A stretch of DNA of 39,737 nucleotides from an uncultured Brevundimonas sp. (lineage in GTDB: Bacteria; Pseudomonadota; Alphaproteobacteria; Caulobacterales; Caulobacteraceae), in assembly GCF_943913055.1 (NCBI RefSeq), contig NZ_CALTWS010000001.1:1-39737 (forward strand), written 5' to 3'. The notes beneath the pieces were generated by a model. It did not search any database. It saw nothing but the letters and a program-made list of their open reading frames with translations, and was not told the DNA's origin. Positions 25,171 to 39,737 of this stretch are shown piece by piece. The translations under genes were made by a program, and so were the position numbers. Position 1 is the first letter of the stretch; every line of letters begins with the position of its first letter.

Positions 25171-25311
25171 GCCCTGGTCGATCGCTTCGACTTCGACGCA
25201 GCCTGAGGTTAGACATTGCGGAAGATTGCCGCCGCACATGACTTCTGCCCCGTCGCGCACGTCAACCGCTTGCTCGGCTGCCTGCTCGATCAATATGCAG
25301 GAAGTCGACGA

Positions 25312-25359
25312 TGGTGGGTGATGTAGGGTTCGAACCTACGACCCGCTGATTAATAGTCA
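25312..25359 (-). tRNA. 3' fragment of tRNA-Lys (att site of the integrated element), not a complete tRNA
   Basis: Minus strand reads TGACTATTAATCAGCGGGTCGTAGGTTCGAACCCTACATCACCCACCA: 3' anticodon arm, T-arm GTAGG-TTCGAAC-CCTAC, acceptor strand, discriminator A and CCA. D-arm and 5' acceptor strand are absent. Confidence 0.85.
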
Positions 25360-25453
25360 TTAATTGACCTGTCCGGCCTCGTCCGAGATCGTCGGAAAAT
25401 CCTTGTATCTTGGGCATTTGAGATCCAACGTCGTCCGGCGACTTCCGGGGGTA

Positions 25454-25481
25454 TGTTCCCCGAAGTGTTACCCTGGGTAAC
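25454..25481. promoter_or_regulatory. Candidate integrase arm-type sites
   Basis: Direct pair TGTTCCCC (25454) and TGTTACCC (25466), with perfect inverted GTTACCC-t-GGGTAAC (25467-25481), between att and int. Confidence 0.45.
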
Positions 25482-25519
25482 GCGACTGGGGGCCGCTGAT
25501 ATGGGTTCAGGAGGTCTCG

Positions 25520-26758
25520 GTGGCGGGCGCAGTAGGGCTGACAGATGCGAAGATCCAAGGACTGAAGGCACCGGGAACGGGCCGGATCGAAGTGGCCGAC
25601 AAGGTTGTCTCCGGCCTCCGGATCCGCGTCGGCACGTCGGGCGCAAAGACATTCATTGTCCGCAAGCGCATCGGCGGGCGGATCGCCAACGTCACAGTGG
25701 GGCGATTTCACGATCAGCGGTTCAACTTGGCCGACGCACGCAGGAAGGCCCGGACGCTGCTCAACGATATTGAGGGCGGTGGCGATCCGAGGTCCGAGAC
25801 GCGCAAGAAGACAGGAGCGGGCGCCGGCACCGTCCGCGCGCTGTTCGAGGACTACAAGAAGGCGAAGGCCAGCAAGCGCTCGATTTCCGAGATCGAGCGG
25901 ATCTTCAACAAGTATGTGCTGCCGGAAATTGGCGACCGGCTTGCGGACAGCGTCAGCCGCGCGGACGTGACCCGGTTGATTGATGGTGTAGCAACGGGCG
26001 GCGCCAAGCCTACGCCGGTCATGGCGCGCGCGGTCGCCGCTCAGCTTAGCGCCTTCTATTCCTGGGCCATGCCGCGATTACATCGGCTGGAGGTCAATCC
26101 CTGCCGCGACGCCGGCAAGCCGGACAAACCAAAGGCGCGGGAGCGGGTCCTGAGCAATGATGAGCTGAAATCGCTTTGGACTGTTCTCGACGGCGAAGGG
26201 CTGCCTTGGGGACCCTCAGTGAAGCTGCTGATCCTGACGGGGCAGCGCCGTGATGAAGTGTTCAGCGCCGACCGGGCCGAGTTTGATCTGAAGGCGCAGC
26301 TATGGGTGATCCCCGGCGAACGGGCGAAGAACGGCAAGGCGCATCTTGTCCCACTGTCCGCGGCTGCGGTGGAGTTGATTGAGGCGGTGCCGGAGCTCGA
26401 TGGCAGCGCCAAGCTGTTTCCGAGCCGCTCCGATCCCAAACGCGGTGCTTCCGGATTCAGCAAGGCGTTAGCGCGGATCACCGCCCAAATTGTCCAGAAA
26501 CTGGGACCTATCGATCATTTCACCCTGCATGATTTGCGGAGGACGATGGCGACCGGATTGCAGCGCCTTGGCGTCAGGCTGGAGGTTACAGAGGCGGTGC
26601 TGAATCACGTCGCTGGCACCCGCGGTGGACTCGTCGGTGTCTACCAGCGGCACGAGTTCCTCGACGAGAAGCGGCATGCGCTGGACGCTTGGGCTGCAGA
26701 GGTTGAGCGGATCGCGAACCCCACGGCGCGTGGCAACGTCGTTGCGATCAATGGCTAG
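25520..26758 (+). CDS. int: Tyrosine integrase, P4-like with N-terminal arm-binding domain
   Basis: AGGAGG RBS; LTDAKIQGLK...GLRIRVGTSGAKTF arm domain; catalytic R (TGQRRDE), K (AKNG), HDLRR, LNH, Y (GVYQR). Confidence 0.95.
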   Translation: MAGAVGLTDAKIQGLKAPGTGRIEVADKVVSGLRIRVGTSGAKTFIVRKRIGGRIANVTVGRFHDQRFNLADARRKARTLLNDIEGGGDPRSETRKKTGAGAGTVRALFEDYKKAKASKRSISEIERIFNKYVLPEIGDRLADSVSRADVTRLIDGVATGGAKPTPVMARAVAAQLSAFYSWAMPRLHRLEVNPCRDAGKPDKPKARERVLSNDELKSLWTVLDGEGLPWGPSVKLLILTGQRRDEVFSADRAEFDLKAQLWVIPGERAKNGKAHLVPLSAAAVELIEAVPELDGSAKLFPSRSDPKRGASGFSKALARITAQIVQKLGPIDHFTLHDLRRTMATGLQRLGVRLEVTEAVLNHVAGTRGGLVGVYQRHEFLDEKRHALDAWAAEVERIANPTARGNVVAING

Positions 26759-27452
26759 CGGATGGGGAGTTCCTGACTGGCGTGACGCGAAAGCATACCC
26801 TGACCCCGGCGAGACGACAGTGCGTGAATGGTGGTGGGAGTTCACCCGCAGGAGGCCGGATTATCGCGCGCTATGGGACGCAGCGGCCCGTGTGGCGGGC
26901 TACGAACACCGGTTTGCTCCCGACGTCGACGAGTTCCGTCTGCGGTTCGAGCTATCAGTCATACACGATCCGGCGCGCCGGCTGACTGACTGGCAGCTGA
27001 TACACTTTCGCGTCCCCCGGAATTTTGCGCGATCGCACCTGGAACCTGTGTTGGAGCAAGTCGAAAGACTTCTTGAAAGTCCCTATGGGGAGCAGACTCT
27101 GGAGATGGTCGCTCAGGGGCGAAAGATCTCCGACGATGAAAATCAGATCCTTTTCAACTTCGACCTGTCACGCCCGCTCAAGCCGCAGCTGGACGTGGCT
27201 GCACGGTACCTGACCGAGGTGCAGCGGGAGAAATTTGGCAAGGTCGCGACACGGCGGCCGCGGCGGACTAACTGGCCCGAGTTCCTGCGGGCGATCGACG
27301 CTCGTGACGCCGGCGCGACGTACCGAGAGATGCGTGACGTATTCTGGCCGGATCGTTCCCCTCGGAAGGACGGTCGGGAGCAAAAGACGGAGCAGAACGC
27401 GCGCGACGTTCATGCGGCTGCGTGCAAGCTGCGAGACAACTTCCCCATATAA
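26751..27452 (+). CDS. FseA-like (DUF6499 + DUF2285) putative transcriptional activator, single reading frame
   Basis: N-terminal DWRDAKAY...WWWEFTRRRPDYRA resembles the DUF6499 AWEFLRRN motif; C-terminal FLRAIDARDAGATYREMRDVFWP resembles DUF2285. ATG overlaps the int 3' end. Confidence 0.65.
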   Translation: MASGWGVPDWRDAKAYPDPGETTVREWWWEFTRRRPDYRALWDAAARVAGYEHRFAPDVDEFRLRFELSVIHDPARRLTDWQLIHFRVPRNFARSHLEPVLEQVERLLESPYGEQTLEMVAQGRKISDDENQILFNFDLSRPLKPQLDVAARYLTEVQREKFGKVATRRPRRTNWPEFLRAIDARDAGATYREMRDVFWPDRSPRKDGREQKTEQNARDVHAAACKLRDNFPI

Positions 27453-27516
27453 TTCTCAACGCGGCGAGCCAGCGTCCGACCTAAGCCGGTGTCATCCGAC
27501 ACTGCGGACGACCAAC

Positions 27517-27699
27517 ATGCAAAAACTGCTTAGGCTACCTCAGGTGATCGAGCGGACATCCCTGCGCCGCTCGACAATCTACGAGATGATGCAGGGCGGG
27601 AGCTTTCCGAAGCCGGTTAAGCTGAACTTGCGTTCCAATGGCTGGATCGAAAGCGAGATCAGTGACTGGGTAGCCGCTCGAATTGCTGAGCGCGACTGA
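27517..27699 (+). CDS. alpA: AlpA-family excisionase/transcriptional regulator
   Basis: MQKLLRLPQVIERTSLRRSTIYEMMQGGSFPKPVKL...WIESEISDW, the classic AlpA pattern. Confidence 0.93.
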   Translation: MQKLLRLPQVIERTSLRRSTIYEMMQGGSFPKPVKLNLRSNGWIESEISDWVAARIAERD

Positions 27700-27701
27700 C
27701 T

Positions 27702-27833
27702 ATGGCGCTAAGAGCGAAAGTTGGACCGGGATCGTCCCCAGAAGATCGCCGCTCGTCGGGATTCACGGCCGTGTGGCCCGGCGAAGAATCAGGGGTGATT
27801 CAGACCGGGGACTCCGGGGCGCTGTTGCCATGA
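27702..27833 (+). CDS. Possible 43-aa coupling ORF
   Basis: MALRAKVGPGSSPEDRRSSGFTAVWPGEESGVIQTGDSGALLP exactly fills the alpA-helicase gap; its stop overlaps the helicase ATG (ATGA). Confidence 0.3.
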   Translation: MALRAKVGPGSSPEDRRSSGFTAVWPGEESGVIQTGDSGALLP

Positions 27834-28966
27834 GCGTCGCGCTAAAGGCGGTTCCAAACGGCTACGTACAGCTCCCGGTCGTCGATCTTGCTCGCTGGGC
27901 GGACTGCGAACCGCCGCCGCGGGATTTCCTTATACCGGGCCTTATCCCGAACGGATGTGTGACTTCGCTGTACGGCGATGGTGGATCGGGAAAGACCATG
28001 ATCGCCCTCTGGCTCATGGTCGCGATGGCTTGCCGCTATGGTGCAAAGTGGATGGACGAAACGCCTCTCGGGTTCAGGTCAGTCGGACTCTTCGCGGAAG
28101 ATGACGAGGCCGAATTGGTGCGCCGTGTGCATCGGCTATGTAGCGGTCTAGACGTCGACTTCTCGTGCGTGGCGCCGGGGATCATCATGGTGCCCGGTGT
28201 CGGCATGGATACCATCGTCGCCCATTTCCATGCCGACACAGGCGAACTCGTCATTACTCCAATCATGAGATCCCTGATCGACAAGGTGCGTGCAGAGGGC
28301 GCCTCGCTACTGGTTCTTGACTATGCAGCGGCCGTATTCGGCGGGAATGAACTCGACCGGTCCCAAGTCTCGGTTTTCATGCGGTGGCTAAATGCAGTTG
28401 CGCGAGAAGAGAACATCGCAATTTTGCTGTTGGGCCACCCCTCCGTCGATGGAATGAAAAGCTCCAGGGGGACGTCAGGGTCGACCGCATGGCGCAACCA
28501 AGCGCGCTCGTTTCTCAGCTTAACGGTCGACGATGTCCAAGACGACCCAAATGGCCGCCGTCTACTGACGCTTGCGCTGACCAAGAGCAACTACAGCCGC
28601 GCCGGGTGCGTCTTCAATCTGACTTTTGACGGCACGAGGTTCGAGGTTCTGTCCGCATCTGACGGGCCCCTCAGAGGGTCCAAGAGACCTCGCCTACCTC
28701 GGTCTCAGAAGGTCGCTTTGGACTCCCTGCAGAGGGCGGTGGTGGACGAAGGCATTTCGTCCCCTGGGGGCGGGGTGCCTGCTGATGCTCGATGCGTCCA
28801 GCTCAACCGCTGGCGCGAATACTCCTTCCAGAGCGGCATTAGCCAAACTGACACGCCTTATGCCCGCAAGAAGGCGTTCAGTAGGGCAGCGCAAGACCTT
28901 TTAGCCAAAGGGCTTGTGGGAGTCTGCGAGCCTTGGGTTTGGGCGCAATCGAAGGTGGGACAATGA
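27830..28966 (+). CDS. AAA_25/RepA-like SF4 helicase with a putative C-terminal DNA-binding domain
   Basis: FLIPGLIP, Walker A GDGGSGKT, AEDD, Walker B LLVLD, LLGHPS, SGSTAWRNQARS, KSNY. Confidence 0.88.
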   Translation: MSVALKAVPNGYVQLPVVDLARWADCEPPPRDFLIPGLIPNGCVTSLYGDGGSGKTMIALWLMVAMACRYGAKWMDETPLGFRSVGLFAEDDEAELVRRVHRLCSGLDVDFSCVAPGIIMVPGVGMDTIVAHFHADTGELVITPIMRSLIDKVRAEGASLLVLDYAAAVFGGNELDRSQVSVFMRWLNAVAREENIAILLLGHPSVDGMKSSRGTSGSTAWRNQARSFLSLTVDDVQDDPNGRRLLTLALTKSNYSRAGCVFNLTFDGTRFEVLSASDGPLRGSKRPRLPRSQKVALDSLQRAVVDEGISSPGGGVPADARCVQLNRWREYSFQSGISQTDTPYARKKAFSRAAQDLLAKGLVGVCEPWVWAQSKVGQ

Positions 28967-29048
28967 ACAAGACAGAATGTCCCGCGGGACATGTCCAGAG
29001 GGCGACAATCGGGACACCCCTAAAGGGGGAGTGTCCCTCTTGTCCCAC
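28955..29048. repeat. Iteron-like GGGACA/TGTCCC cluster, putative replication origin
   Basis: GGGACA at 28957, 28986, 29011; TGTCCC at 28978, 29032, 29041; outer inverted repeat GTGGGACAA/TTGTCCCAC; located at the helicase 3' end. Confidence 0.6.
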
Positions 29049-29168
29049 CCCTCCTGCCCGCGTTCGTCTCAAGTTCGACGAAGCGAGTGCCCGCGTTCTG
29101 TGCAGAGATGATGCGATGGGAGCCGAGGACTCCCTTCGCGAACCAGTTGCGCAAGGGGCAGGCTCAAA

Positions 29169-29260
29169 GGGGGGAGGGGCATGAAAAGTCCGAAACTGCA
29201 GTCGCGGAGACCGGTGCCGGGGCCGCTTTTTCACAGAGCGCAAGTTTCGAGGTGGGGGTC
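29169..29260 (+). other. Putative cos-like packaging region
   Basis: G-run followed by AAAAGTCCG, GAGACCGGTGCCG, TTTTTCAC and a second G-run, directly upstream of a P27-type terS. Resembles the layout ahead of terS in HK97-like cos phages. Confidence 0.5.
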
Positions 29261-29293
29261 GAGATATCCGACTTGATGTGAATGGAGCTGAGC

Positions 29294-29788
29294 ATGGGGA
29301 AGCGTGGTCCACGTCCGAAGCCGAGTGCGCTTAGGCTGCTCGAGGGCGGCAATCGGGGCAGGCGCCCCTTGCCTCTGAATGAGCCTCAACCGTCGCGACC
29401 GGCAGGGGTGCCCCCACCTCCGCCGTATCTCTCGGGCTACGCCCATACTGAATGGGAGCGGGTCATTGGAGATCTCTGCGCCACAGGGGTTTATGCCAAT
29501 ATCGACCAGACCATGTTGGCCGCCTACTGCATGGCCTACAGGCGTTGGCGTCTTGCAGAGGATCTTGCGTCCAGATTGTCCGCCCAAGATCCAACCATCC
29601 ACGGCGTTCTGATGAAGACGGAGGGTGGCAACGTAGTTCAGAATCCGGCTGTCGGCGCCGCTAACGTCGCCCGCCGAGACATGCTGCGCCTAGCGGCCGA
29701 GTTTGGGCTGACGCCATCTGGACGCGTTGCGCTAGATAACGGTAGGCAAGACAGCGATGACGCGGTGGCGCAGAAGTACGGCATCTAA
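29294..29788 (+). CDS. terS: Phage terminase small subunit, P27 family
   Basis: MGKRGPRPKPSALRLLEG; PPPYLSGYAHTEWERV; LAAYCMAY; VQNPAV; AAEFGLTPSGR. GGAG RBS. Confidence 0.92.
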   Translation: MGKRGPRPKPSALRLLEGGNRGRRPLPLNEPQPSRPAGVPPPPPYLSGYAHTEWERVIGDLCATGVYANIDQTMLAAYCMAYRRWRLAEDLASRLSAQDPTIHGVLMKTEGGNVVQNPAVGAANVARRDMLRLAAEFGLTPSGRVALDNGRQDSDDAVAQKYGI

Positions 29789-29813
29789 AGCGCCGCGACG
29801 GCTAAGCGCCTGC

Positions 29814-29922
29814 AGCGGACGTTGGACCCGTGACCCGAAAGCAGACCTTGACGTGATGATGATGGACGTCCGTTGGACTTTCCTGTCGGCGCGGTGGTCT
29901 CCTTGGGAACCAGCAGACATTG
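29814..29922 (+). repeat. Three short direct repeats AGCRGACNTTG
   Basis: AGCGGACGTTG (29814), AGCAGACCTTG (29840), AGCAGACATTG (29912). Confidence 0.45.
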
Positions 29923-29976
29923 AGCGGCACCTGCGTTAGCGTCCCCGCATTTTCCAACGATCGAGACGAGAGCACC

Positions 29977-30675
29977 ATGGGACGGCCACGCCACTACAGC
30001 GCGGAGATACCGGCCCGATGTCAGGCGCTCATCGAAATGCTAGGTACTGCGGTCGAGGAAGCGTCTGATCCGAACGGGCGCTGGGGCGGGCCGCTGAAAA
30101 CCACCTTCTTGATGGCGATGGCGACGCCGATGATCGCACTGCCGATCGAGCGGATATTCAAGCCGGCGCGCGACAACCACGAAGGGGTCGCGGATGATCG
30201 GGAGCTTGATCCAGATCTGTCTGGTCAAGTGGCTCACGAACTGGGGCCGGCGCGGCCGTTCGGATCCGCCCCCTTTTTCGAGCGCGGAGCCTGGGCCTAT
30301 ATTCCTACTATCGGCCCGTTCAACGTCGCCGGGGACTGGCCTGCTCGGGCCTTGGTCCCCCTAAGGTCTGCAGCCGCGGCCGAGGCTGCAGCCGAGGCAC
30401 CAGCCCGGGTCATCCTCCTCGCCTTGCGTAACGCTTTGAGCCACGGCGGAGTCACCTACCTGGATCGGAACGGAGGCCATGCCGATTACGCGACCCACAT
30501 GCTGGGATTCGCCAGCCTAGCGAGGGCCCGTCATCCTGAGTTGCGTTTGCTGCGCGTTGGGGTCCCCGAGTTTGAGACCTTTCTGCGGCTTTGGGCGAAT
30601 TGGCTCTCGTCTGCGGGTGTCATAGACCAACTTGAAAGGCGCGGTCCGGGGCACTTTCAGTTCGCTGCCGAGTGA
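29977..30675 (+). CDS. Hypothetical protein, putative HEPN-family nuclease
   Basis: Rx4H motif in LRNALSHG preceded by helical TTFLMAMATPMIALPIE, reminiscent of pEK499_p136-type HEPN proteins. Confidence 0.55.
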   Translation: MGRPRHYSAEIPARCQALIEMLGTAVEEASDPNGRWGGPLKTTFLMAMATPMIALPIERIFKPARDNHEGVADDRELDPDLSGQVAHELGPARPFGSAPFFERGAWAYIPTIGPFNVAGDWPARALVPLRSAAAAEAAAEAPARVILLALRNALSHGGVTYLDRNGGHADYATHMLGFASLARARHPELRLLRVGVPEFETFLRLWANWLSSAGVIDQLERRGPGHFQFAAE

Positions 30676-30698
30676 CCCGGCGAGACGAATAGACCGGA

Positions 30699-31559
30699 TC
30701 AGATCTGAAAGAGGCTGCGCAACTCTGTCGTCTCGAGCAGCCGCGCGCGATCAGTGACCCGGACATCGGCGATCACGTCTTCGGTGAGATAGGCCGCGAC
30801 CGCGTCCGCCTCGGACTTGTTTGGGCAGACGACCCAATCTCGGGCCATGCGCATGGCGCACCGACGGACCAAGTCGGCCAGATCGGCTTTATCCGAGCCA
30901 TCTCGCACCTCGACCGAAAACCGCCCTTCGCGACCATCCAGATCCGGCGCGAAGACCATTAGGCATCGGGGCGCCAAGGCAAAGAAGGCCATGGGCTTGT
31001 GCTCTGCTTGTGGAGTCAGGTCCCAAAACGGTTGGTCGTTGGTGAGCAACCGTATCGGCGTATTACGCAGAATCACAATGCGGCCGCTTTTGAAGAATCG
31101 CATGCGGTCGTGAGCGACTGCATAGATGCTGTTGAGCACCGCCAAGCGTGCCTCTTCATCGGTCAGGCCGGGATCCTGCGCCTTTAGGATCACTTCGAGT
31201 TCTCGAACGGCGTGGGCGCTGCGGTAGCCCGAGCTCACGATGCTCTCCAAGGCTCTGTAGACGACGCGCGGCTTGGGCCCTCGCTTCCCGCTCGCGGCTT
31301 GGGCTCGGGCCAGGTCGCACAGCGCTCCTTCGTTCTCGGCGAGCCAATTCTCGAAGCGATCGTCGCGTTGACCGTTTACGTAGACCGGGGCGTACAGATC
31401 TCGGCTAATAGCGAACGATGCCTTCAGGCCCGGCGAGAAGCGCACGGCGCGGGTGGGGATATCGAAGTACCAAATGCCGACCCGCTGCTTGTCGTCGGTC
31501 GACGACCAGCCCGCAAGGTATCCTCGGGTGACCACGTGATTATTGCGCTTGAGAGACAA
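30699..31559 (-). CDS. DUF4238-domain protein
   Basis: N-terminal NHVVTRGYLAGW (HYVPxxYLxxF-like), RDLY, ENWLAENE, and LLTNDQPF (TSDxP-like). AGGA precedes a TTG start. Confidence 0.7.
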   Translation of the reverse strand: MSLKRNNHVVTRGYLAGWSSTDDKQRVGIWYFDIPTRAVRFSPGLKASFAISRDLYAPVYVNGQRDDRFENWLAENEGALCDLARAQAASGKRGPKPRVVYRALESIVSSGYRSAHAVRELEVILKAQDPGLTDEEARLAVLNSIYAVAHDRMRFFKSGRIVILRNTPIRLLTNDQPFWDLTPQAEHKPMAFFALAPRCLMVFAPDLDGREGRFSVEVRDGSDKADLADLVRRCAMRMARDWVVCPNKSEADAVAAYLTEDVIADVRVTDRARLLETTELRSLFQI

Positions 31560-31734
31560 CGGCTAAATCCTAGGAGTCTTGGCTTGGCGGGAGGGGGCCA
31601 AGGCGGCGTAGCGCCGGAACGGGACATTGACGCTGCTCCCAATGGAAGAAGCTTGCTGCGCGCGATTACGGGCAATGGCCGAGCTCAGCAGCAAAGCGGT
31701 GCCGATCATCACCGCCTGCGAGCACAGACCGCCG

Positions 31735-32472
31735 TCACGTCTTCGCTCCCTCCGCCTTCGGCTTTGGCTTTAAGCCCACCTCTGCCCGCGAGAGCTCTTC
31801 CTGGGCCCCGCGCAGCTGTTCAGAGAGCTCCCCGGACAGGGCGCCGGACAGTGCGACCAAAGCGTCGAGTTTGCGTACGCGGCTCTGGAGCCAGTCCACC
31901 CGACTCTTCAAACCTTCGACCGCCCGATCCTCGCCTGACCGCAGGAAGGTGATGATCGTGCGCTCGGGCCCGTCTTCACCCAGGGCTTCGCGCGCGGTGT
32001 CGAGCCAGGCCTCGCCGGTCTCGATGCTCTCGTCCAGGGCCCGTCTCAGACAATAGCGGATCAGTTCGCGGGCAGAATCGTCGATGATAGCGGCGAGCTC
32101 GATCCACTGCCGTCCTTCCTTCGAGGGCCGGCTCGCCGACATTGCGCCCTGAAGCGGCGAGGCGTAGCGAAAGGGCGTCCTGTCCGGCTCCAGGGCGAGG
32201 ATGGCCCCCTCCAGCGCCCTGAGATCGTCGAACGCGGGTATGGCCGGCTCGAGCTCGTGGCGATGAGCCCATACTTCGAGGACAGCTTCGGCGCATTGCC
32301 TCGCTAGAGCGTCCCGAGTTTCGGGGGTCGCCGTCTCCACGGCGAGCATTCGCTCGGCGAGGTAGTGCGCCATCCAACCGGCCAACAGGTCGTTGTCCGG
32401 TTCGAACTCAAGGTGTTCGACCAGCTTTCTCCCGAGTGCGATGACGGCGGCGTCAGAGGGTTCGGATGCCAT
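31735..32472 (-). CDS. avs3b: AVAST type 3 accessory protein Avs3b
   Basis: VIALGRKLVEHL...DLLAGWMAHYLAE...CAEAVLEVWAHR...IDDSARELI; overlaps the avs3a 3' end by 20 nt. Confidence 0.85.
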   Translation of the reverse strand: MASEPSDAAVIALGRKLVEHLEFEPDNDLLAGWMAHYLAERMLAVETATPETRDALARQCAEAVLEVWAHRHELEPAIPAFDDLRALEGAILALEPDRTPFRYASPLQGAMSASRPSKEGRQWIELAAIIDDSARELIRYCLRRALDESIETGEAWLDTAREALGEDGPERTIITFLRSGEDRAVEGLKSRVDWLQSRVRKLDALVALSGALSGELSEQLRGAQEELSRAEVGLKPKPKAEGAKT

Positions 32473-35400
32473 CAGGGCTCACCAGATAGATGCGGAAGTA
32501 AGGCCACGGGAATTCGATCACGCCATCATTGCGGTCCTTGGCGTAGGTGGCGCGCTCCACCGATCGTCGCAGCGACACGGCAAGGATCAGATCTTCGCCT
32601 CGCGCCTCGAGGAGGTCTGCGAGACGGCCGCGATCAACGGTCAGCCTGTCCCCCGGGTGGTTTTCGTGCTCGCGCCCCCGGCGCGACGTCCACGTCCACG
32701 ATTCCGCCCGGAACATCTCGCCGCAGGAATCCCGCCAAACGCGACCTTCCGCGTCTGCAGTCAAGCCGAGCGCCGCGACAAGGTCATCACCTGGGCGCGG
32801 CCCGGGCCAGCCAAGGCTTCCACCGACCCAGCCGTCGCGCTCGTCCAGTCCCTTCTCGGGCGACGGCTCCCGAATCCAGCCTTTCAGGCGCAGCGCACCG
32901 CGGCCGATCTCGTCGTCCCCAGCGGAAGGCAGGCTGTAGACATTGAACTCCCCGCTGAGCTGCATCGATCTCAGAAGCGACGGTCCGCCGGCCCTTGAGA
33001 CGAACGCACTGCGAAGGGTTACCTGCTCCTGACGGTTTTCGTCGCCGGACGTCCAGCTCCCCCAGACACAGAGATCGGGCTCGTCCAGGCGAACGATCGC
33101 ATCCAGTCGGCGTCGGCTGATACCCCAGCGCCAGGTATGATCGTCATAGCTTTCAGGCGCCGGCAGGGGCGGAAGCCGGACGGGGTCGCGCCGATCCGAG
33201 ACCCACCGACCATCCGCTCGCGTTAGGCCTTCCCGCTCGAGCCATTGAGAAAACTCATCGGGAGCGCCGGGCTCCGCATAGGGATCGAGCCGCGTCGGCC
33301 GCGTCCTCAGAAGTTCACCTGCCGTCAGCATCAGCCCGTGATAGCCGTAGTAGTCACGAAGACCTTCGGAGGCTGGGGTCATGCCCTGACCTGCATAGGT
33401 TTCCATCGACTCGAAAATACCTCGGTTGTGTCGCGGGTCGTCCCGCACGTCGTCGCGCCCCGCCACGCCGAAGACGCGCTCGACCTGCAGGGTCGCCATA
33501 TGTTCGACGCGGGCGGTCGAGGCTCCGAAGCAACGGCCGAGCGGGGAGAACATGTATCGCCCGGCGTCCAGGCCGAAGGCATAGGTTTCCTTGAGCGCGT
33601 CGGTTTTATCGCCGTCGGCGTCATAGTCCGAGCGACTGACCGCGACCGGGGCGCTCGCGGGGGCGTTGATCGCCTCGAGCCATCGCTGTTCCGTGGGCTC
33701 GAGCACCACCCTCCCCGACCGCCCATGCGTCAAGATCAGCTCCGCCGCCAATCCGCGGATCAGCACGTGATCCGTCTCTAACCAAGCCCGGGCCAAGCCC
33801 ACCGTTTCCGCAGACAGGGGCGTGCAGCCATCCACGGCCGCGCGGTTCAGTCCCAGGAGAAGCCACTGTCGGGCATGAAGCGCGTAGAAGGGCAGTCGTT
33901 GGTCCGCATAGGGTCCGGCGCCGCCCTGCCGGGCCAGATCGAGGAGCGGCGCCAAGGTCTCGACGACCCCCAGTTCGGCAAGCGCGCGCACCGCATGGGC
34001 GTGGGCCCATCTCAGCGTTCCGGTCGGCGAGCCCAGTCCCGTCCAGAGATAGCCGGCCAAGGCCGAACGCAATTCGGCAGGCGGGTGGAGGGCTTCCCGC
34101 CACTGGCCGTCCCCGTCCTCGTCCGTCAGCAGAGGATCGAGCAGTCCAAGACCGTAGCGAAGCCCTTCATCCGCTTCGTCGGGGGTCAGTTTTTCCGCCG
34201 CAAACCGCGCGAGCTGGAAAAGTCCATCTGCAGAGTACAGCCCGACGCCGTCCGCGAACCCAGCGAGCACCGCATCCACGATCTCCGCCCGGGTAACCAC
34301 TCCGGCCAACCGTTCGAGGTCCACCGTCTGGTACTGGGCGCTGAGGTAAACCTTGGCTGGATTGGCGCGACACACCTGCAATGCGACGCGCTTGATCGTA
34401 GACTTGACCGCGAGACGCGAGAGGGTCGCAATGGGGATACACTCGACCAGGCCGCGAAGACTGTAGGTTTCGAAATCCGGTAGTTGGCTGATGGCGAGGA
34501 CAACCGCGTCCTCCTGTCCGGCACCGGCGCGCGCGAAGGCCTCGCGGAACAGCTCATCCGTGCCCCAAGGCGCTTCGCCGGCCCTGACCCGTCGCTGGGC
34601 GGTGCGCATATCGTCCGCATCGGTCGGATCGAGCTTCTTGAAGATCGCGTTCCAGTAGGGTCGCCCCCGTTCTGACCGATCACCGCGCCACATCTCTTCT
34701 TTCGTGGGGTTGGCAACGGGGAAATCGCTCTCCGCCACCAGGGGCTCCGGCAGGTTGAGGACGCCCGGATCGAGCCCGAGGCGCACTGCCAGGCCCCGCA
34801 ATTCTTCGAGATCCTTCGCGGTTCTGGATCCCATTCTGAGATAGCGGAAGGCGATCGCGATCCCGGCCTCTCGCGTGTTTGCATCCGGTGCGGTCTCAAG
34901 GAAGGCGTCGAGTTGATCCTTGTGGTTCCAGAGGCCCGGCACCCCGGCGAACGCCAAGCTGTCCCGAGGCGTGAGTTGACCGCGCTTGATGAGGGCCTCG
35001 ACGGCTTCGGACAGGAGGCGCTCGTCGTCGCCGAAGCGGCGGTCGCGCCACCGACTCAGGAGGGTGAACAAGGACGCTGGATCGAGCCCGGCCACCGCAT
35101 CGATCGTCCCGTCCCAGTCGAAGTATTTGTCCCGGGCAACGAGAGACCGGGTTAGCTCCCCGACGCGGGACATGCGGTAGGCGGTCTCGGCGCGGGCGAC
35201 GCCGGGCGCTTCGGCAACGCGGGCCAAGTGCAGGAAACACTCCCAGCGCGGGATGTTCTCATCCCCGATCCGGCTGAGGATCTCGATGGCGCGATCAAAA
35301 TGGGCCCGGGCCTCTGGTTCGCTCACCGTGAAAATCGCCCTCGCTAGGGCCAACAGGCTTTGCCCTTGGGTATCGGCTTCGTCCCTGACCGCCTCGACTC

Positions 35401-38400
35401 GGGCGCGCGCGAGGCCCGCATAGTGGAGCGCGTCGCTCGCGCACCGCTTCGTGCGACCGAACAGGTGCGACATCCGGGTCAAGGCCTCAATCGTCGGCGT
35501 ATGCACCGTGCCGGCCACCCAGGCCCGAAGCGCGCGGCGCCGCTTGGCCGTAGCCATACCGTTACGGCAAAGGATCGCGGCTCGTTCGACGGCAATATCG
35601 CTCAGGGTCGAGAAGCCTTCGCGGTACTCGGACTGTCTCGCCTGTTCGGAGGCCTTCTCAGCCTGAACGATCCGAGCGTCGAGTCCGCCGGACGCCACCC
35701 GCCCGGTTACGACATCCGCCCCGAGGACGGACCAAGGCAGAATCGCCCCGGTCTCCGACTTGAAGATGCGGGCCTCCTCGCTACGACCGTAGGAGGCCAA
35801 GAGATCCTTACGGATGGCGTCGGACGCCAGATCCAGGAGATCGAGCGCGCCTCCGCGAAGTGCGGCGCGCAGGGCGTATGCGCGCAGAAGCGCGGGCTTT
35901 CCGTGCCCAAGCCGGGCGGACAGATCGTGAGGCAGTTTCTCCGGCACGACGCGGTCGAGAATCTGCGCCCAGGCCTCGAACTCCGCCGGTAAGGTCAGCA
36001 CCGCCGTTTCGATTGCCGCGGCGACGGCCTGCAAGACCGGCCATGGATCGCTCCACTCGTCGAGCTCCTTGAGCTTCAATCGCTTAAACGACAGAAGGCG
36101 GAGCAGTCGCTTCAGAGGTCCCGCGTCGAGAGCGCGTCCGGCGTTTCGGAGCTCCAGCGCTAGGGCGAGCAGGAGCCATACGTTGTTGCGCGCCCCAATG
36201 CCCAGTGCCTGCACGTCCTCGAAGTGTCCCAGATCAATCAGACGACGCGCCAGCATCCGCCCGGCGATGAAGGCCACAGGCCGGTGCGTCCAACGCCGCA
36301 GGAAGGCCGCCGCCTGCCGGGGGCCGTGGACGCGGAGAACGGCGTAGGCGAGGGTCACCCGGTCCTCGTGGTCCACAGTCTCGTCCCGCTCCCGCGGATC
36401 GCCGCGAGGCCGCCGCGCCCAGCTGTCGAGCCATTCCAGTGCCATACGCAGGCGGCTGGCCGCGTCGCCGGACAGCCGCGGATGATCCGCCATGATCGCC
36501 GCATCATAGGCGTGGTGGGCCCCCATCCAGTCAGACCCGAAGGTGCGTCGTGCGACCAGCTCCTCGACGCGATCGGGCGCTATCAGGGCGGATGCGAGTT
36601 CGACGTTGTTCTGGATCAGGCTGATCTGTCGGCCTTCACCGGCCGTCTCCCCGGCGGCCCTGACGGCGAGCTTCACCGCATCGAGATAGCGGTGGGTGCG
36701 GAGACAGGCTCTCAACGCGAAAATCAGCCGCTGAACCTCGACATCGCGTCGCTCGAGCGGATTGGTCTCGGGGAGGTCCTTGCCAGACAAGGCCAGGTCG
36801 ACGAGCTCCGCGTGAAATCCGCCGTCCAACAAGAGTTCGGGCAATGCGGAGGCGACGTAAGCGCTTTCAGAGGCCTGCGGACGCAGCGTCTCCACGAAAT
36901 CGATCAGTCGTTCACGTGGCGGCTTAAACGTGTCACGGAACCAGGTCTCGACGGGTTCATCCCGGAAGTGGAGGCTGTCTCCAGCGATCCGCAAAGGCGG
37001 ACCAAGGTCAGTAGCGAAGCTGCGGATCGCACCTTCGGGAACGTCGGACAGCTTCGCGAGGACGCCGATGGGAACCAGAGGTCTCAACGTCGCCAGCCCG
37101 ACGCAGATGCGATCAACCTGCTCGGCCGCCACGCCGCCTGTCTCGCTCTTGAGCTTGTTGACGGCGCCCTGCAGCAGCCCGCCGATGGCGGCGGCCACCG
37201 TGGTCGGTTCCGGCCCTAAAGCCTTGAGGACCGCGGACAAGCTGGCGTCGCCCTGCAAGGCGAGCGCTTGGACGCGGGGGTTGTGCGAGCTGAGGTAGGC
37301 GAACTCCGCCACGTCCTTTGGTGTCGCCTTGGAGAACCTGCTCCGAAGATGTTGCCCGGTCTCCATCTCATTGAACGGCTCAAGCTCAATGTGTTCAGCC
37401 TCGGCGGGCGGGTCGAAGTCGACGACACGATGGCTGCGGCTCGTGAACACCAGCCGAACGCCCTCAGGAATGGGCATGCGGATCAAGTCGCGGACGAAAG
37501 ACCCCGGATCCCCCTGTTCGCGCGCCGCCGTCTCGGCATTGTCCGCTGCATCCACGATCACGCAGATCACAGCGGTCGGGTCCAAGGCGCGGATGTGTCG
37601 CGACGCCTGTTCCAGCCGGTAGGCGAACGCCCGCATATAGCCCTTGGCGTCGGCGTGACCGGCCGGGATCAGCGGATGGCACCACCCTCGCGATGCCATT
37701 TCGTTAGCTATCTGGACAAGGCCGTCACGGTGGCGGTGCCGGAAATCCAGGGCGTTGCGGTAAAGCCCGACCCCGTAACAATCGTAGAGGACCGCGACGG
37801 AGCCCTTCGGCATGCCCTGGGCCAATCGCGCGGCGAGGACGGATTTTCCGACCCCACCGTCCGCATGGATGACGATCGGCGCCCCGGCTCCCAGGATTTC
37901 GCGGAGAATGTCAGGCTCCTGCTTTCGCGCGATTGTCCCATCCGGCGAGGGGATTCTGGACGGGGCGGGAAACAGGTCCAGTTCCGAGGTTTTCAGAGCA
38001 CGCAGGATGTCGTCACGCCGGATCGTCGGGTTGGATTCAAACTCCGTCGTGGCCTTCCGGGTGACCAACTCCTTGAGCTGAACAGGCCCATCGACATCCG
38101 CTTCGGGAAGATAGCCGCGCAGGTCCTCGCTCAGCATGTTGCGCTGGTTCCACACGTCGGGCGCGGAGCCGTCGAAATCCAGGAGGCTGAAGAAGGCTTG
38201 GACCTGCTTGCCCTTCAGACCGGTAAACCGGACGAGGCTCGCGGCTGTATCGGCGTAGGTTAGGGCGGTGCCTTCGGCCAGCTGCTTCAGTGATGTCAGG
38301 ATCGGCTTGGAGAAGCGCCGGTTGCTGATGAACTGGAACCGTACGCGACCGGACGAGAAGGCTGCCGCGAGCTGTTTGAGCCTTACTCTGTAGCGCGCGC

Positions 38401-38728
38401 CGAAGCCTGCGAGGGTTTTCTCCAGTTCCGCGGGCGTCCAAGACTTGTTGACCCGGCGCGTCGAGTGTTTGAGCTGGACATAGTGGATCGCTCTGGCGTC
38501 AGCCGGACGTTCACTGCCGAAGTAAAGTCCGACGTCGATGAGTTCGTCGCCCAAGAGACCATCGGGGCCCTCCTTGTCGACGATGGACGCGCCCTCGATC
38601 GTGACAGCGGTTAGCCCGGATTGCGGTGACAGGAGCTTGAGACTCTGACGCGCCGCCCACGCGTAGTGGAACTGGTCACCATCACGGCTCGCCCGTACGA
38701 GATCACTGCCGCTCGTTTCGGACGACAT
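32453..38728 (-). CDS. avs3a: AVAST type 3 anti-phage nuclease/STAND ATPase Avs3a (about 2091 aa)
   Basis: N-terminal LVRASRDGDQFHYAWAAR...ELIDVGLY...VQLKHST (PD-(D/E)xK-type nuclease); Walker A ADGGVGKS; Walker B VIVDAADN; long helical C-terminus. ATG 38728 is preferred over the ORF-track start at 38812. Confidence 0.9.
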   Translation of the reverse strand: MSSETSGSDLVRASRDGDQFHYAWAARQSLKLLSPQSGLTAVTIEGASIVDKEGPDGLLGDELIDVGLYFGSERPADARAIHYVQLKHSTRRVNKSWTPAELEKTLAGFGARYRVRLKQLAAAFSSGRVRFQFISNRRFSKPILTSLKQLAEGTALTYADTAASLVRFTGLKGKQVQAFFSLLDFDGSAPDVWNQRNMLSEDLRGYLPEADVDGPVQLKELVTRKATTEFESNPTIRRDDILRALKTSELDLFPAPSRIPSPDGTIARKQEPDILREILGAGAPIVIHADGGVGKSVLAARLAQGMPKGSVAVLYDCYGVGLYRNALDFRHRHRDGLVQIANEMASRGWCHPLIPAGHADAKGYMRAFAYRLEQASRHIRALDPTAVICVIVDAADNAETAAREQGDPGSFVRDLIRMPIPEGVRLVFTSRSHRVVDFDPPAEAEHIELEPFNEMETGQHLRSRFSKATPKDVAEFAYLSSHNPRVQALALQGDASLSAVLKALGPEPTTVAAAIGGLLQGAVNKLKSETGGVAAEQVDRICVGLATLRPLVPIGVLAKLSDVPEGAIRSFATDLGPPLRIAGDSLHFRDEPVETWFRDTFKPPRERLIDFVETLRPQASESAYVASALPELLLDGGFHAELVDLALSGKDLPETNPLERRDVEVQRLIFALRACLRTHRYLDAVKLAVRAAGETAGEGRQISLIQNNVELASALIAPDRVEELVARRTFGSDWMGAHHAYDAAIMADHPRLSGDAASRLRMALEWLDSWARRPRGDPRERDETVDHEDRVTLAYAVLRVHGPRQAAAFLRRWTHRPVAFIAGRMLARRLIDLGHFEDVQALGIGARNNVWLLLALALELRNAGRALDAGPLKRLLRLLSFKRLKLKELDEWSDPWPVLQAVAAAIETAVLTLPAEFEAWAQILDRVVPEKLPHDLSARLGHGKPALLRAYALRAALRGGALDLLDLASDAIRKDLLASYGRSEEARIFKSETGAILPWSVLGADVVTGRVASGGLDARIVQAEKASEQARQSEYREGFSTLSDIAVERAAILCRNGMATAKRRRALRAWVAGTVHTPTIEALTRMSHLFGRTKRCASDALHYAGLARARVEAVRDEADTQGQSLLALARAIFTVSEPEARAHFDRAIEILSRIGDENIPRWECFLHLARVAEAPGVARAETAYRMSRVGELTRSLVARDKYFDWDGTIDAVAGLDPASLFTLLSRWRDRRFGDDERLLSEAVEALIKRGQLTPRDSLAFAGVPGLWNHKDQLDAFLETAPDANTREAGIAIAFRYLRMGSRTAKDLEELRGLAVRLGLDPGVLNLPEPLVAESDFPVANPTKEEMWRGDRSERGRPYWNAIFKKLDPTDADDMRTAQRRVRAGEAPWGTDELFREAFARAGAGQEDAVVLAISQLPDFETYSLRGLVECIPIATLSRLAVKSTIKRVALQVCRANPAKVYLSAQYQTVDLERLAGVVTRAEIVDAVLAGFADGVGLYSADGLFQLARFAAEKLTPDEADEGLRYGLGLLDPLLTDEDGDGQWREALHPPAELRSALAGYLWTGLGSPTGTLRWAHAHAVRALAELGVVETLAPLLDLARQGGAGPYADQRLPFYALHARQWLLLGLNRAAVDGCTPLSAETVGLARAWLETDHVLIRGLAAELILTHGRSGRVVLEPTEQRWLEAINAPASAPVAVSRSDYDADGDKTDALKETYAFGLDAGRYMFSPLGRCFGASTARVEHMATLQVERVFGVAGRDDVRDDPRHNRGIFESMETYAGQGMTPASEGLRDYYGYHGLMLTAGELLRTRPTRLDPYAEPGAPDEFSQWLEREGLTRADGRWVSDRRDPVRLPPLPAPESYDDHTWRWGISRRRLDAIVRLDEPDLCVWGSWTSGDENRQEQVTLRSAFVSRAGGPSLLRSMQLSGEFNVYSLPSAGDDEIGRGALRLKGWIREPSPEKGLDERDGWVGGSLGWPGPRPGDDLVAALGLTADAEGRVWRDSCGEMFRAESWTWTSRRGREHENHPGDRLTVDRGRLADLLEARGEDLILAVSLRRSVERATYAKDRNDGVIEFPWPYFRIYLVSPDGIRTL

Positions 38729-38900
38729 CAAAGACAATCCAGAAGGTGCCACCAGAGCCTCTAAAGGGCACTCGCTGCCCGCCTTAGTGGAGCCGGTCGC
38801 AAAGAAAAACAACTCGACGGTGCTCTGTTGAAGGACAGTGCGTCATGATTCTCGCGTCGAACTTGGCCATCTGCAGGCAGCGGCGCGGGTGTCCCCGCCC

Positions 38901-39737
38901 TCACCAGCCGCGCCAGGCCCAATCCTCAATCGGCGGCAGTCGGTCAAACGGCGCCGAGCCGTCCAGCAGCGGATCCCGCACGTCCGCCTCCGCCAGCGCC
39001 CAAGCCCGCCAGCCGGGGTAGTCTTGGCTTGTCGCTACAGGCGAGGCGGCCGTGGCGGCGATGTAGGCGCGGATCGCTTCGGCCTCGCGATGACGCTCAG
39101 CCTGGTCGAGCAACCGCTTACCTAACGCCTCCTCCGCTTGGCGGTACGCTGTCTCGCGCCGTCGCTCAGCTTCAGCGGCCGCCCAGTCCGCCCTCCGCTT
39201 CGCATCGAACCGGCGGCGCTCGGCCAAGAACTCCAGCCCCGCCTCGATACTGGCAACAACTACCGGGAGCTGGCCTTCAAGCGGCGTCGTCAGCTCCTTG
39301 AACTCGGTCTGGATCGACAGCGACTCTCGGATTTTCAGGACCAAGTCGCCTGCCGGCACAGTGGCGCGCACGGTTTGACGCTTGGGGTCCCAACGCCGTT
39401 CGTCCTCAGTCGCCGGCCGGTGCACGATCTTGCCGCGCTCATAAAGCGCGAAGGGCAGGGTCTCGTCGCCGTCGGTCGCCGTCAGCAGCCCGCGCTCGGT
39501 CCCGACCACCAGAGACTTGCGCTCGAGTGCTTTTAGCACGGCGCTGGTCAGGCGCAGCCGGCGCTGAGCCAAGGGCGAGGTCAGGTCCTCGATATACTCC
39601 AGACCCCAACCGCGTTGGCGCGCTTCGCGGCGACGGCCAAGATTTTCGTCGATCCAGCTGCGGACGATCGGGTGGGCATGGCGCAGGTCTTTAGGCGGAG
39701 GGATCGGCTCGGCCTTTGCGAGGGCTGCTGCCAAGGC
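38901..39737 (-). CDS. Hypothetical protein (5' end outside the window)
   Basis: Frame is open to the window edge; HPIV...RRLRLTSAVLKALE, coiled-coil region, C-terminal WRAWALAEADVRDPL. Confidence 0.75.
   Translation of the reverse strand, partial: ALAAALAKAEPIPPPKDLRHAHPIVRSWIDENLGRRREARQRGWGLEYIEDLTSPLAQRRLRLTSAVLKALERKSLVVGTERGLLTATDGDETLPFALYERGKIVHRPATEDERRWDPKRQTVRATVPAGDLVLKIRESLSIQTEFKELTTPLEGQLPVVVASIEAGLEFLAERRRFDAKRRADWAAAEAERRRETAYRQAEEALGKRLLDQAERHREAEAIRAYIAATAASPVATSQDYPGWRAWALAEADVRDPLLDGSAPFDRLPPIEDWAWRGW

Follow-up and report, generated by a model that had tools for sequence, protein, structure and literature searches.

The DNA analysed here is a stretch of 39,737 nt from an uncultured Brevundimonas sp., referred to throughout as the window. 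It is the entire contig C1 of an assembly of 287 contigs (2.6 Mb, rated 93% complete), and its right-hand part, at least 14.4 kb, belongs to an island at a tRNA-Lys gene in a genome of 65% GC. Within this island an orphan gene for a small terminase (terS) is followed, after a gap of 1.9 kb, by the antiphage operon avs3b-avs3a, whose larger product resembles SeAvs3, a sensor of the large terminase (TerL) of phages. The initial annotation had described terS and intact avs3a and avs3b within one element, and this is borne out: all three open reading frames (ORFs) are open. The statement that they share one element is valid up to the contig end, which lies 925 nt past the avs3a ORF.

Attachment site and core genes

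The integrase-side boundary of the island is an attachment (att) repeat at 25307..25359 (minus strand), 53 nt long and made up of the 3' part of tRNA-Lys(CTT) and 5 nt of downstream DNA. It is identical at 52 of 53 positions to C48:7706-7758, on a second contig that carries the intact tRNA-Lys(CTT) gene (C48:7678-7753). The sole mismatch between the att fragment and the intact gene is at the first anticodon base (CTT vs ATT), which fits a crossover that may have taken place in the anticodon loop. ARAGORN and Rfam called no tRNA or other RNA gene in the window, and a 42-nt pattern from the fragment occurs there once at up to three mismatches. In the assembly as a whole the tRNA-Lys att sequence has two copies only, the window fragment and that on C48. 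The integrase gene stands at the island end, beside the repeat; going by the orientation of the two copies, the island extends between the tRNA gene on C48 and the window fragment, with int at the far end.

Reading inwards from the repeat, all core genes lie on the plus strand. The tyrosine integrase (25520..26758) has an arm-binding domain (Pfam Phage_integrase 6.1e-15, Arm-DNA-bind_3 9.6e-14; phrog_1 1.3e-53) and is followed by an ORF for a putative regulator (26754..27452; Pfam RovC_DNA-bd 1.2e-4 and Trans_reg_dom 3.3e-3, both under the cut-off). An AlpA-family regulator or excisionase comes next (27517..27699), with a Phage_AlpA match of 9.2e-18 over residues 97-146 of the ORF at 27235-27699 and a match to phrog_2790. 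The replication gene rep (27683..28966) encodes an AAA_25 (RepA/DnaB-like) NTPase (Pfam AAA_25 2.5e-28) that aligns with the helicase portion of two primase/helicase families in PHROG, phrog_906 and phrog_239.

The last core gene, terS (29294..29788), is assigned to the P27 family of small terminases by three profile collections: Pfam Terminase_4 (PF05119; E 2.1e-23, 83 bits against a cut-off of 24.7), NCBIfam TIGR01558 (63.2 bits against a cut-off of 45.6) and PHROG phrog_83 (E 1.2e-36). Its ORF spans 29282-29788, and the start at 29294 given in the initial annotation is the second methionine. The protein aligns over its full length with prophage TerS proteins, at 43% identity, and is the only PF05119 match in the genome. 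No gene for TerL, capsid, portal or protease was found in the window, either by tblastn with prophage proteins or by Pfam and PHROG scans of the ten ORFs listed, and the same two scans returned no tail or holin gene among the window ORFs. Scans of 25200-39737 for repeats, promoters and terminators gave nothing above chance, and no iterons, cos site or pac site could be named.

The exchangeable cassette behind terS

The cargo slot starts 35 nt after the terS stop codon. Its extent became apparent from contigs, not reads, of other sequencing runs: X4, a public run of a single organism, the metagenome runs X2 and X3, and X1. Coverage in X1-X3 consists of scattered low-depth contigs, and uncovered parts of these runs carry no weight. 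Contigs of X4 match 25328-29823 at ~96-98% identity and then run into at least 1258 nt of unlike DNA; further X4 contigs, at a comparable depth, cover 38889-39708, and in these the unlike DNA (at least 2071 nt) comes before the match. Since X4 keeps both flanks around different DNA, the segment between terS and ORF38901 (29824..38888) is an exchangeable cassette, and avs3 lies inside one element. ORF38901 itself (38901..39737, minus strand) is a conserved element gene of unassigned family, kept in X4 at ~98% identity along with the island core. It is open at the contig end; no family was assigned to it in Pfam, PHROGs, NCBIfam or PADLOC, and its missing N-terminus was not located in the assembly.

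Four genes fill the slot, namely a HEPN-like gene, a DUF4238 gene, avs3b and avs3a, and this is a 9-kb defence cassette in an accessory position after terS. The first, ORF29977 (29977..30675, plus strand), is HEPN-like as a lead only: the clusters suggested by an Atlas feature search carry PF18736 (pEK499_p136; scores 0.96 and 0.94), the translation shows an R-x4-H motif (RNALSH), and Pfam is silent even at E 5. The second (30699..31559, minus strand) is a weak DUF4238 match (Pfam 5.5e-5, 23.1 bits against a cut-off of 27). Runs X2 and X3 contain scattered pieces of the avs3a region, and X2 in addition contains DUF4238 and a contig across the terS end. In X1, a contig of 856 nt at depth 4 joins 26085 to 36552, a deletion of 10,466 nt from inside int to inside avs3a. 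We read the locus as one element with a cargo slot, together with natural decay variants.

The avs3a gene (32453..38728, minus strand) lies in an ORF at 32453-38812, with an ATG at 38728, the end coordinate of the initial annotation. Its product has the full-length Avs3a architecture, with an N-terminal Cap4-like nuclease, a STAND NTPase (Pfam NACHT 2.3e-7) and a long C-terminal sensor. It matches the PADLOC profile at E 0 and 2244.6 bits (residues 34-2116 on positions 2-2086 of 2090) and the SeAvs3 chain PDB 8dgc_A at 1429.5 bits (residues 34-2115 on 2-2076 of 2092). The N-terminal nuclease block SRDGDQFHY...QLKHS and the motifs GVGKS and DAADNA are in register with SeAvs3; the Walker A and Walker B motifs of the NTPase and the nuclease motif block are both present in this alignment. 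Which residues within the aligned motifs are catalytic is our own assumption.

Directly downstream is avs3b (31735..32472, minus strand; PADLOC 8.4e-49, NCBIfam NF041817 2e-46, the latter under the cut-off), with a 20-nt overlap with the end of avs3a. Both proteins miss the NCBIfam equivalog cut-offs (NF041816, NF041817): Avs3a scores 2323.5 against 2800, and Avs3b 158.6 against 200. These cut-offs are naming thresholds, and the Avs3 alignments are nonetheless full length; the scores therefore mark the two proteins as divergent within the family. Across the order Avs3a is rare: 5 of 401 sampled genomes have it, counting this one, and none of the five reaches the NCBIfam cut-off. Three other Avs3a contexts in the order are integrase or recombinase islands in which no terS was found. 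As a side observation, a further genome of the order encodes an Avs3a-like protein of 2184 aa right behind tRNA-Gly and an integrase (L035: 18054-19558; L036: 1-6555), and tblastn detected no Avs3b homologue there.

The relationship between the two Avs3 proteins was followed beyond the order in a scan of one genome per species, which gave 421 Avs3a relatives among 577 candidate stretches; the best 80 loci were taken with up to 10 kb on each side, and the named relatives are 29-52% identical. In 69 of these 80 loci, all without terS, an Avs3b homologue stands right after Avs3a, and most of the 11 loci without one are cut off at or inside avs3a. Hence Avs3b is part of the Avs3 system and not an adaptation of the satellite. 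Its predicted fold is all helical (mean predicted local distance difference test, pLDDT, 80.9), and Foldseek retrieved no PDB structure resembling the model at E <= 0.001. The best hit of a wide VIA-align search (Z 8.5, residues 3-75) was set aside, as it falls on generic three-helix bundles and within the noise for helical proteins. The term 'Avs3b' was not found in the literature searched.

Kinship of the core and the question of a helper

The rep gene ties the core of the island to phage satellites. Homologues occur in 15 of the 401 genomes of the order, including this one, and 13 of the 14 others were examined, leaving aside one on a contig of 1.9 kb. Ten of these 13 loci have an integrase at a distance of 1-3 kb from rep. 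A Pfam scan of 85 ORFs downstream of rep in 11 of the loci found the series TerL-HNH-capsid-protease-portal in three (L145, L146, L148), and capsid with or without protease and portal, or a P27 TerS, in another three (L147, L152, L150). One locus (L155) has methyltransferase, ResIII and PAPS-reductase genes, and three were uninformative. The remaining locus, L151 (2783-13467), also from the order, carries int, rep and a Sf6-type TerS, followed directly by HsdM, Abi_2, HsdS and a Mrr-like nuclease, and provides a second layout within the rep family in which defence cargo comes after terS. An element in genome G073 (rep 59% identical, beside tRNA-Arg) was rejected for direct comparison, with terS missing by tblastn and by Pfam on 14 ORFs.

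Of 594 candidate stretches that the rep alignment retrieved from IMG/VR, 451 encode relatives. The best 80 of these loci, many of them contigs of 8-14 kb, were searched with local profiles: 35 have a protease, 32 a capsid, 29 a TerL, 28 a portal and 10 a P27 TerS. Homologues of the regulator ORF occur in two of them (L190 and L208, by phmmer). The first of these is an 11,418-nt contig resembling a capsid-forming phage-inducible chromosomal island (cf-PICI); it has integrase fragments at both ends and may be a complete element in circularly permuted form. A single-protein search with rep across genome contigs and viral contigs found no relative. Judged by their gene content, the relatives of rep reside mostly in satellite-like, capsid-forming elements of ~10 kb.

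The nearest relatives of TerS, at 44-46% identity, come from a pair of HK97-like prophages that reside elsewhere in the order and encode ParB-methylase, TerS, TerL, portal, S78 protease and capsid; identity to the TerS of satellite-type relatives is only 26-34%. This pattern fits a satellite TerS that would be matched to a phage type infecting the group, and would fit a relic equally well. A terS search of viral contigs gave one distant locus, which was left unused. In this genome, at 93% completeness, there is no TerL of the Terminase_1 type: PF03354 and PF20441 have no match, nor has tblastn with two prophage TerLs.

The only large terminase of the genome is of the Terminase_6N/6C type and lies at the end of contig C167 (L004: 428-6014), where it adjoins a portal and an S78-like protease; a fragment of an HK97 capsid gene is found on a separate contig, C236 (L005: 2649-3452). 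This TerL belongs to a prophage or is gene-transfer-agent-like. Its residence alongside an intact Avs3 implies that it is either silent or not sensed.

Origin of the pairing and comparison with known systems

On balance, we lean towards the explanation that the window contains the integrase-side half of a satellite of the phage-inducible chromosomal island (PICI) type, or of a recent derivative of one, in tRNA-Lys, with Avs3 as ordinary cargo. The initial annotation had likewise taken the locus for a TerS-encoding satellite, a view supported by int, alpA, rep and an orphan terS, the lack of terL, capsid and portal in the window, and a rep gene with kin in PICI- and cf-PICI-like elements. In such an island, TerS would recruit the TerL of an incoming HK97-like, P27-type phage, and the island would be packaged. 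Avs3a may act as SeAvs3 of Salmonella does, in that binding of TerL would lead to oligomerisation and to a nuclease activity that destroys DNA and aborts the infection. The presence of TerS and Avs3 side by side would then be a chance capture of cargo, and any clash with the helper would either be avoided, through an Avs3 that is unresponsive to the helper TerL, or be paid as a cost in transfer, by analogy with the TIR-NLR of P4.

Several observations weigh against this explanation. No primase domain was detected in rep by the Pfam and PHROG scans, no capsid-modifier family was found by the same scans among the window ORFs, and no cognate helper was found in the genome. The right end of the island lies outside the window contig, and the 10.5-kb internal deletion in X1 indicates that decayed copies of the island exist. 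Neither Avs3a nor Avs3b was found in any of the 80 profiled IMG/VR loci of the rep family, and Avs3a was absent from all 13 rep loci of the order (tblastn and phmmer with the window proteins). Finally, the island could be far larger than a PICI. Beyond the tRNA-Lys gene on C48 (L006: 7759-14661) lie a PDC-S71-like helicase and then ZacC. This contig overlaps C59 by 55 nt, and C59 (L140) carries ZacB, ZacA, BrxL, PglZ, PglX (in two ORFs) and the C-terminal third of BrxC. A further contig, C196 (L142), covers BrxC profile positions 5-803 and has upstream BREX-type ORFs, so that a type I BREX set, with BrxC split over two contigs, lies near the tRNA-Lys gene. The BREX/Zac contigs are probably another part of the same island. 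If they are contiguous with the window the island may reach ~39 kb, far above the 10-15 kb given for PICIs (PMC11364771); otherwise there may be two neighbouring islands. No exact end overlap of at least 15 nt was found for C1 or for C196, and the latter is not linked to the window end.

These points lend themselves to a second account, in which the locus is an immobilised remnant, left over from a satellite or cf-PICI after its packaging and capsid genes were replaced, and now a chromosomal defence island of ~39 kb (Avs3, HEPN-like, DUF4238, BREX, ZacABC, helicase) that is never packaged and so has no conflict with a helper. The contigs next to the tRNA gene are full of defence genes (BREX, ZacABC, helicase), the TerL, capsid and portal genes present in most relatives of rep are missing here, no P27-type TerL or prophage was found in the genome, and the X1 deletion and the size of the island, if contiguous, point in the same direction. 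The island is possibly immobile and perhaps no longer packaged. We nevertheless consider a remnant rather unlikely. The int, alpA, rep and terS genes are all open and full length, and the linkage of C196 and C59 to the window end is lacking. Moreover, the same core at ~96-98% identity carries different cargo in another organism (X4), which points to recent activity and to turnover of cargo.

The initial annotation had also raised the prospect that TerS or Avs3b tunes the recognition of TerL. Put as a deliberate pairing, helper TerL bound to TerS, or else Avs3b, would restrain Avs3a, and the TerL of every other phage would trigger destruction of DNA. We regard this as improbable; if true, it would amount to discrimination between helper and competitor at the packaging motor. 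Co-adaptation of this kind, in which TerS of the island or Avs3b would shield or re-tune TerL of the helper and leave Avs3a to kill competitors only, is in our judgement very improbable. It draws its appeal from the proximity of terS and a TerL sensor in one element, from an Avs3b without known function in the literature searched and with a fold without match, and from a report that mobile genetic elements whose immune system targets a component they depend on can come with cognate counter-defence, such as Tai (PMC11364771). However, we found no sign of it in comparative data. A P27 terS profile, built from 14 sequences, matched within 10 kb at none of the best 80 Avs3a loci; PF05119 was present anywhere in just 3 of 50 genomes carrying Avs3a, and the Avs3a loci of those three had no match to the P27 TerS profile. 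The pairing is thus missing in both directions, 0 of 80 Avs3a loci and 0 of 80 rep-family loci, and at 69 of the 80 Avs3a loci Avs3b is present in the absence of terS. The cassette was, in addition, exchanged as a block in X4 with terS retained. The pairing is a single observation, which itself argues against co-adaptation. In a weaker variant, it may be that only satellites without a TerL of their own can carry Avs1-3 cargo, which would explain a terS-only member of a lineage that otherwise encodes TerL.

Least probable of all is the arrangement that the initial annotation had itself named as the case that would undo its claim, two tandem elements with avs3 in a neighbouring island with its own boundary: the contig ends just beyond avs3a in an assembly fragmented into 287 contigs, and GC is higher in avs3a (0.65-0.67) than in the core (0.59-0.64), but neither the window nor the assembly has an att copy beyond the window fragment and the C48 tRNA gene, and in X4 the flanks at terS and at ORF38901 are both kept, at comparable depth, with other DNA between them, which places avs3 between two conserved parts of one element.

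If Avs3 is ordinary cargo of a satellite, as we favour, the locus provides a natural case in which the molecule that is sensed, TerL, is the same one that the island TerS must recruit. The initial annotation had recognised a conflict for a satellite carrying a TerL-triggered nuclease; this is a sound inference, but its general form had already been published, since defence cargo on satellites and its cost to satellite transfer are known (PMC9122126). Because TerL is here both sensed and needed, the island offers a clean and small test system in which cargo that is blind to the helper, costly or actively masked could be told apart. The locus further documents a lineage related to PICIs and cf-PICIs that occurs in a GC-rich genome and whose cargo slot behind terS is defined, and Avs3b as a near-constant partner to which Avs3a is translationally coupled.

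Among the closest known systems are classical Gram-negative PICIs, in the form modelled by SatelliteFinder. Judged against the definition in PMC10085698, a PICI core comprises integrase, regulator, primase-replicase, capsid modifier and TerS, with accessory genes after the terS homolog, and the int-regulator-replicase half is common to PICIs and cf-PICIs. The gene order of the island runs from int through an AlpA regulator and a replication gene to terS, with accessory and immune genes beyond it; four of the five core parts are present in the window element if the AAA_25 NTPase counts as the primase-replicase, and the island part on C1 has no tail, lysis, portal or TerL genes. Immune systems are also reported at PICI ends, and some mobile genetic elements are reported to pair an immune system with cognate counter-defence (PMC11364771). 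The kinship with cf-PICIs lies in the relatives of rep, and in two loci of the regulator, which are found in elements of ~10 kb that also encode TerL, HNH, capsid, protease and portal proteins, whereas the window element has no TerL, capsid, portal or protease of its own. No Avs3 on a terS-bearing satellite was found in the published literature searched, and the supplementary cargo tables of PMC10085698 and PMC9122126 might list Avs-type systems.

With SeAvs3 (AVAST type III, PDB 8DGC), the protein is colinear over its full length, the nuclease and NTPase motifs align and an Avs3b partner is present; the match is partial in identity. SeAvs3 senses conserved terminase features over a broad terminase range (PMC13601566; PMC11564622). 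Many phages nevertheless escape it in plaque tests, where it blocked one Drexlerviridae phage, Bas03, and the other five Drexlerviridae tested resisted (PMC13673623). The resistance of these five makes a selective action of Avs3 plausible.

P4-like satellites offer a further parallel. STAND/NLR systems are among the occupants of their defence hotspots (Rousset et al. 2022, PMC9122126). A TIR-NLR on P4 reduced P4 transfer as strongly as it blocked P2; natural helpers, the authors proposed, might escape the effect (PMC9122126). Common to P4 and to the island is a swappable defence slot beside the packaging determinant, with abortive cargo of STAND/NLR type (PMC9122126). The island core nevertheless differs, having no Psu/Sid/Delta-type layout, and its packaging determinant is a terS gene in place of the shared cos site of P4. 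The cargo differs as well: the island Avs3, by analogy with SeAvs3, would sense TerL itself.

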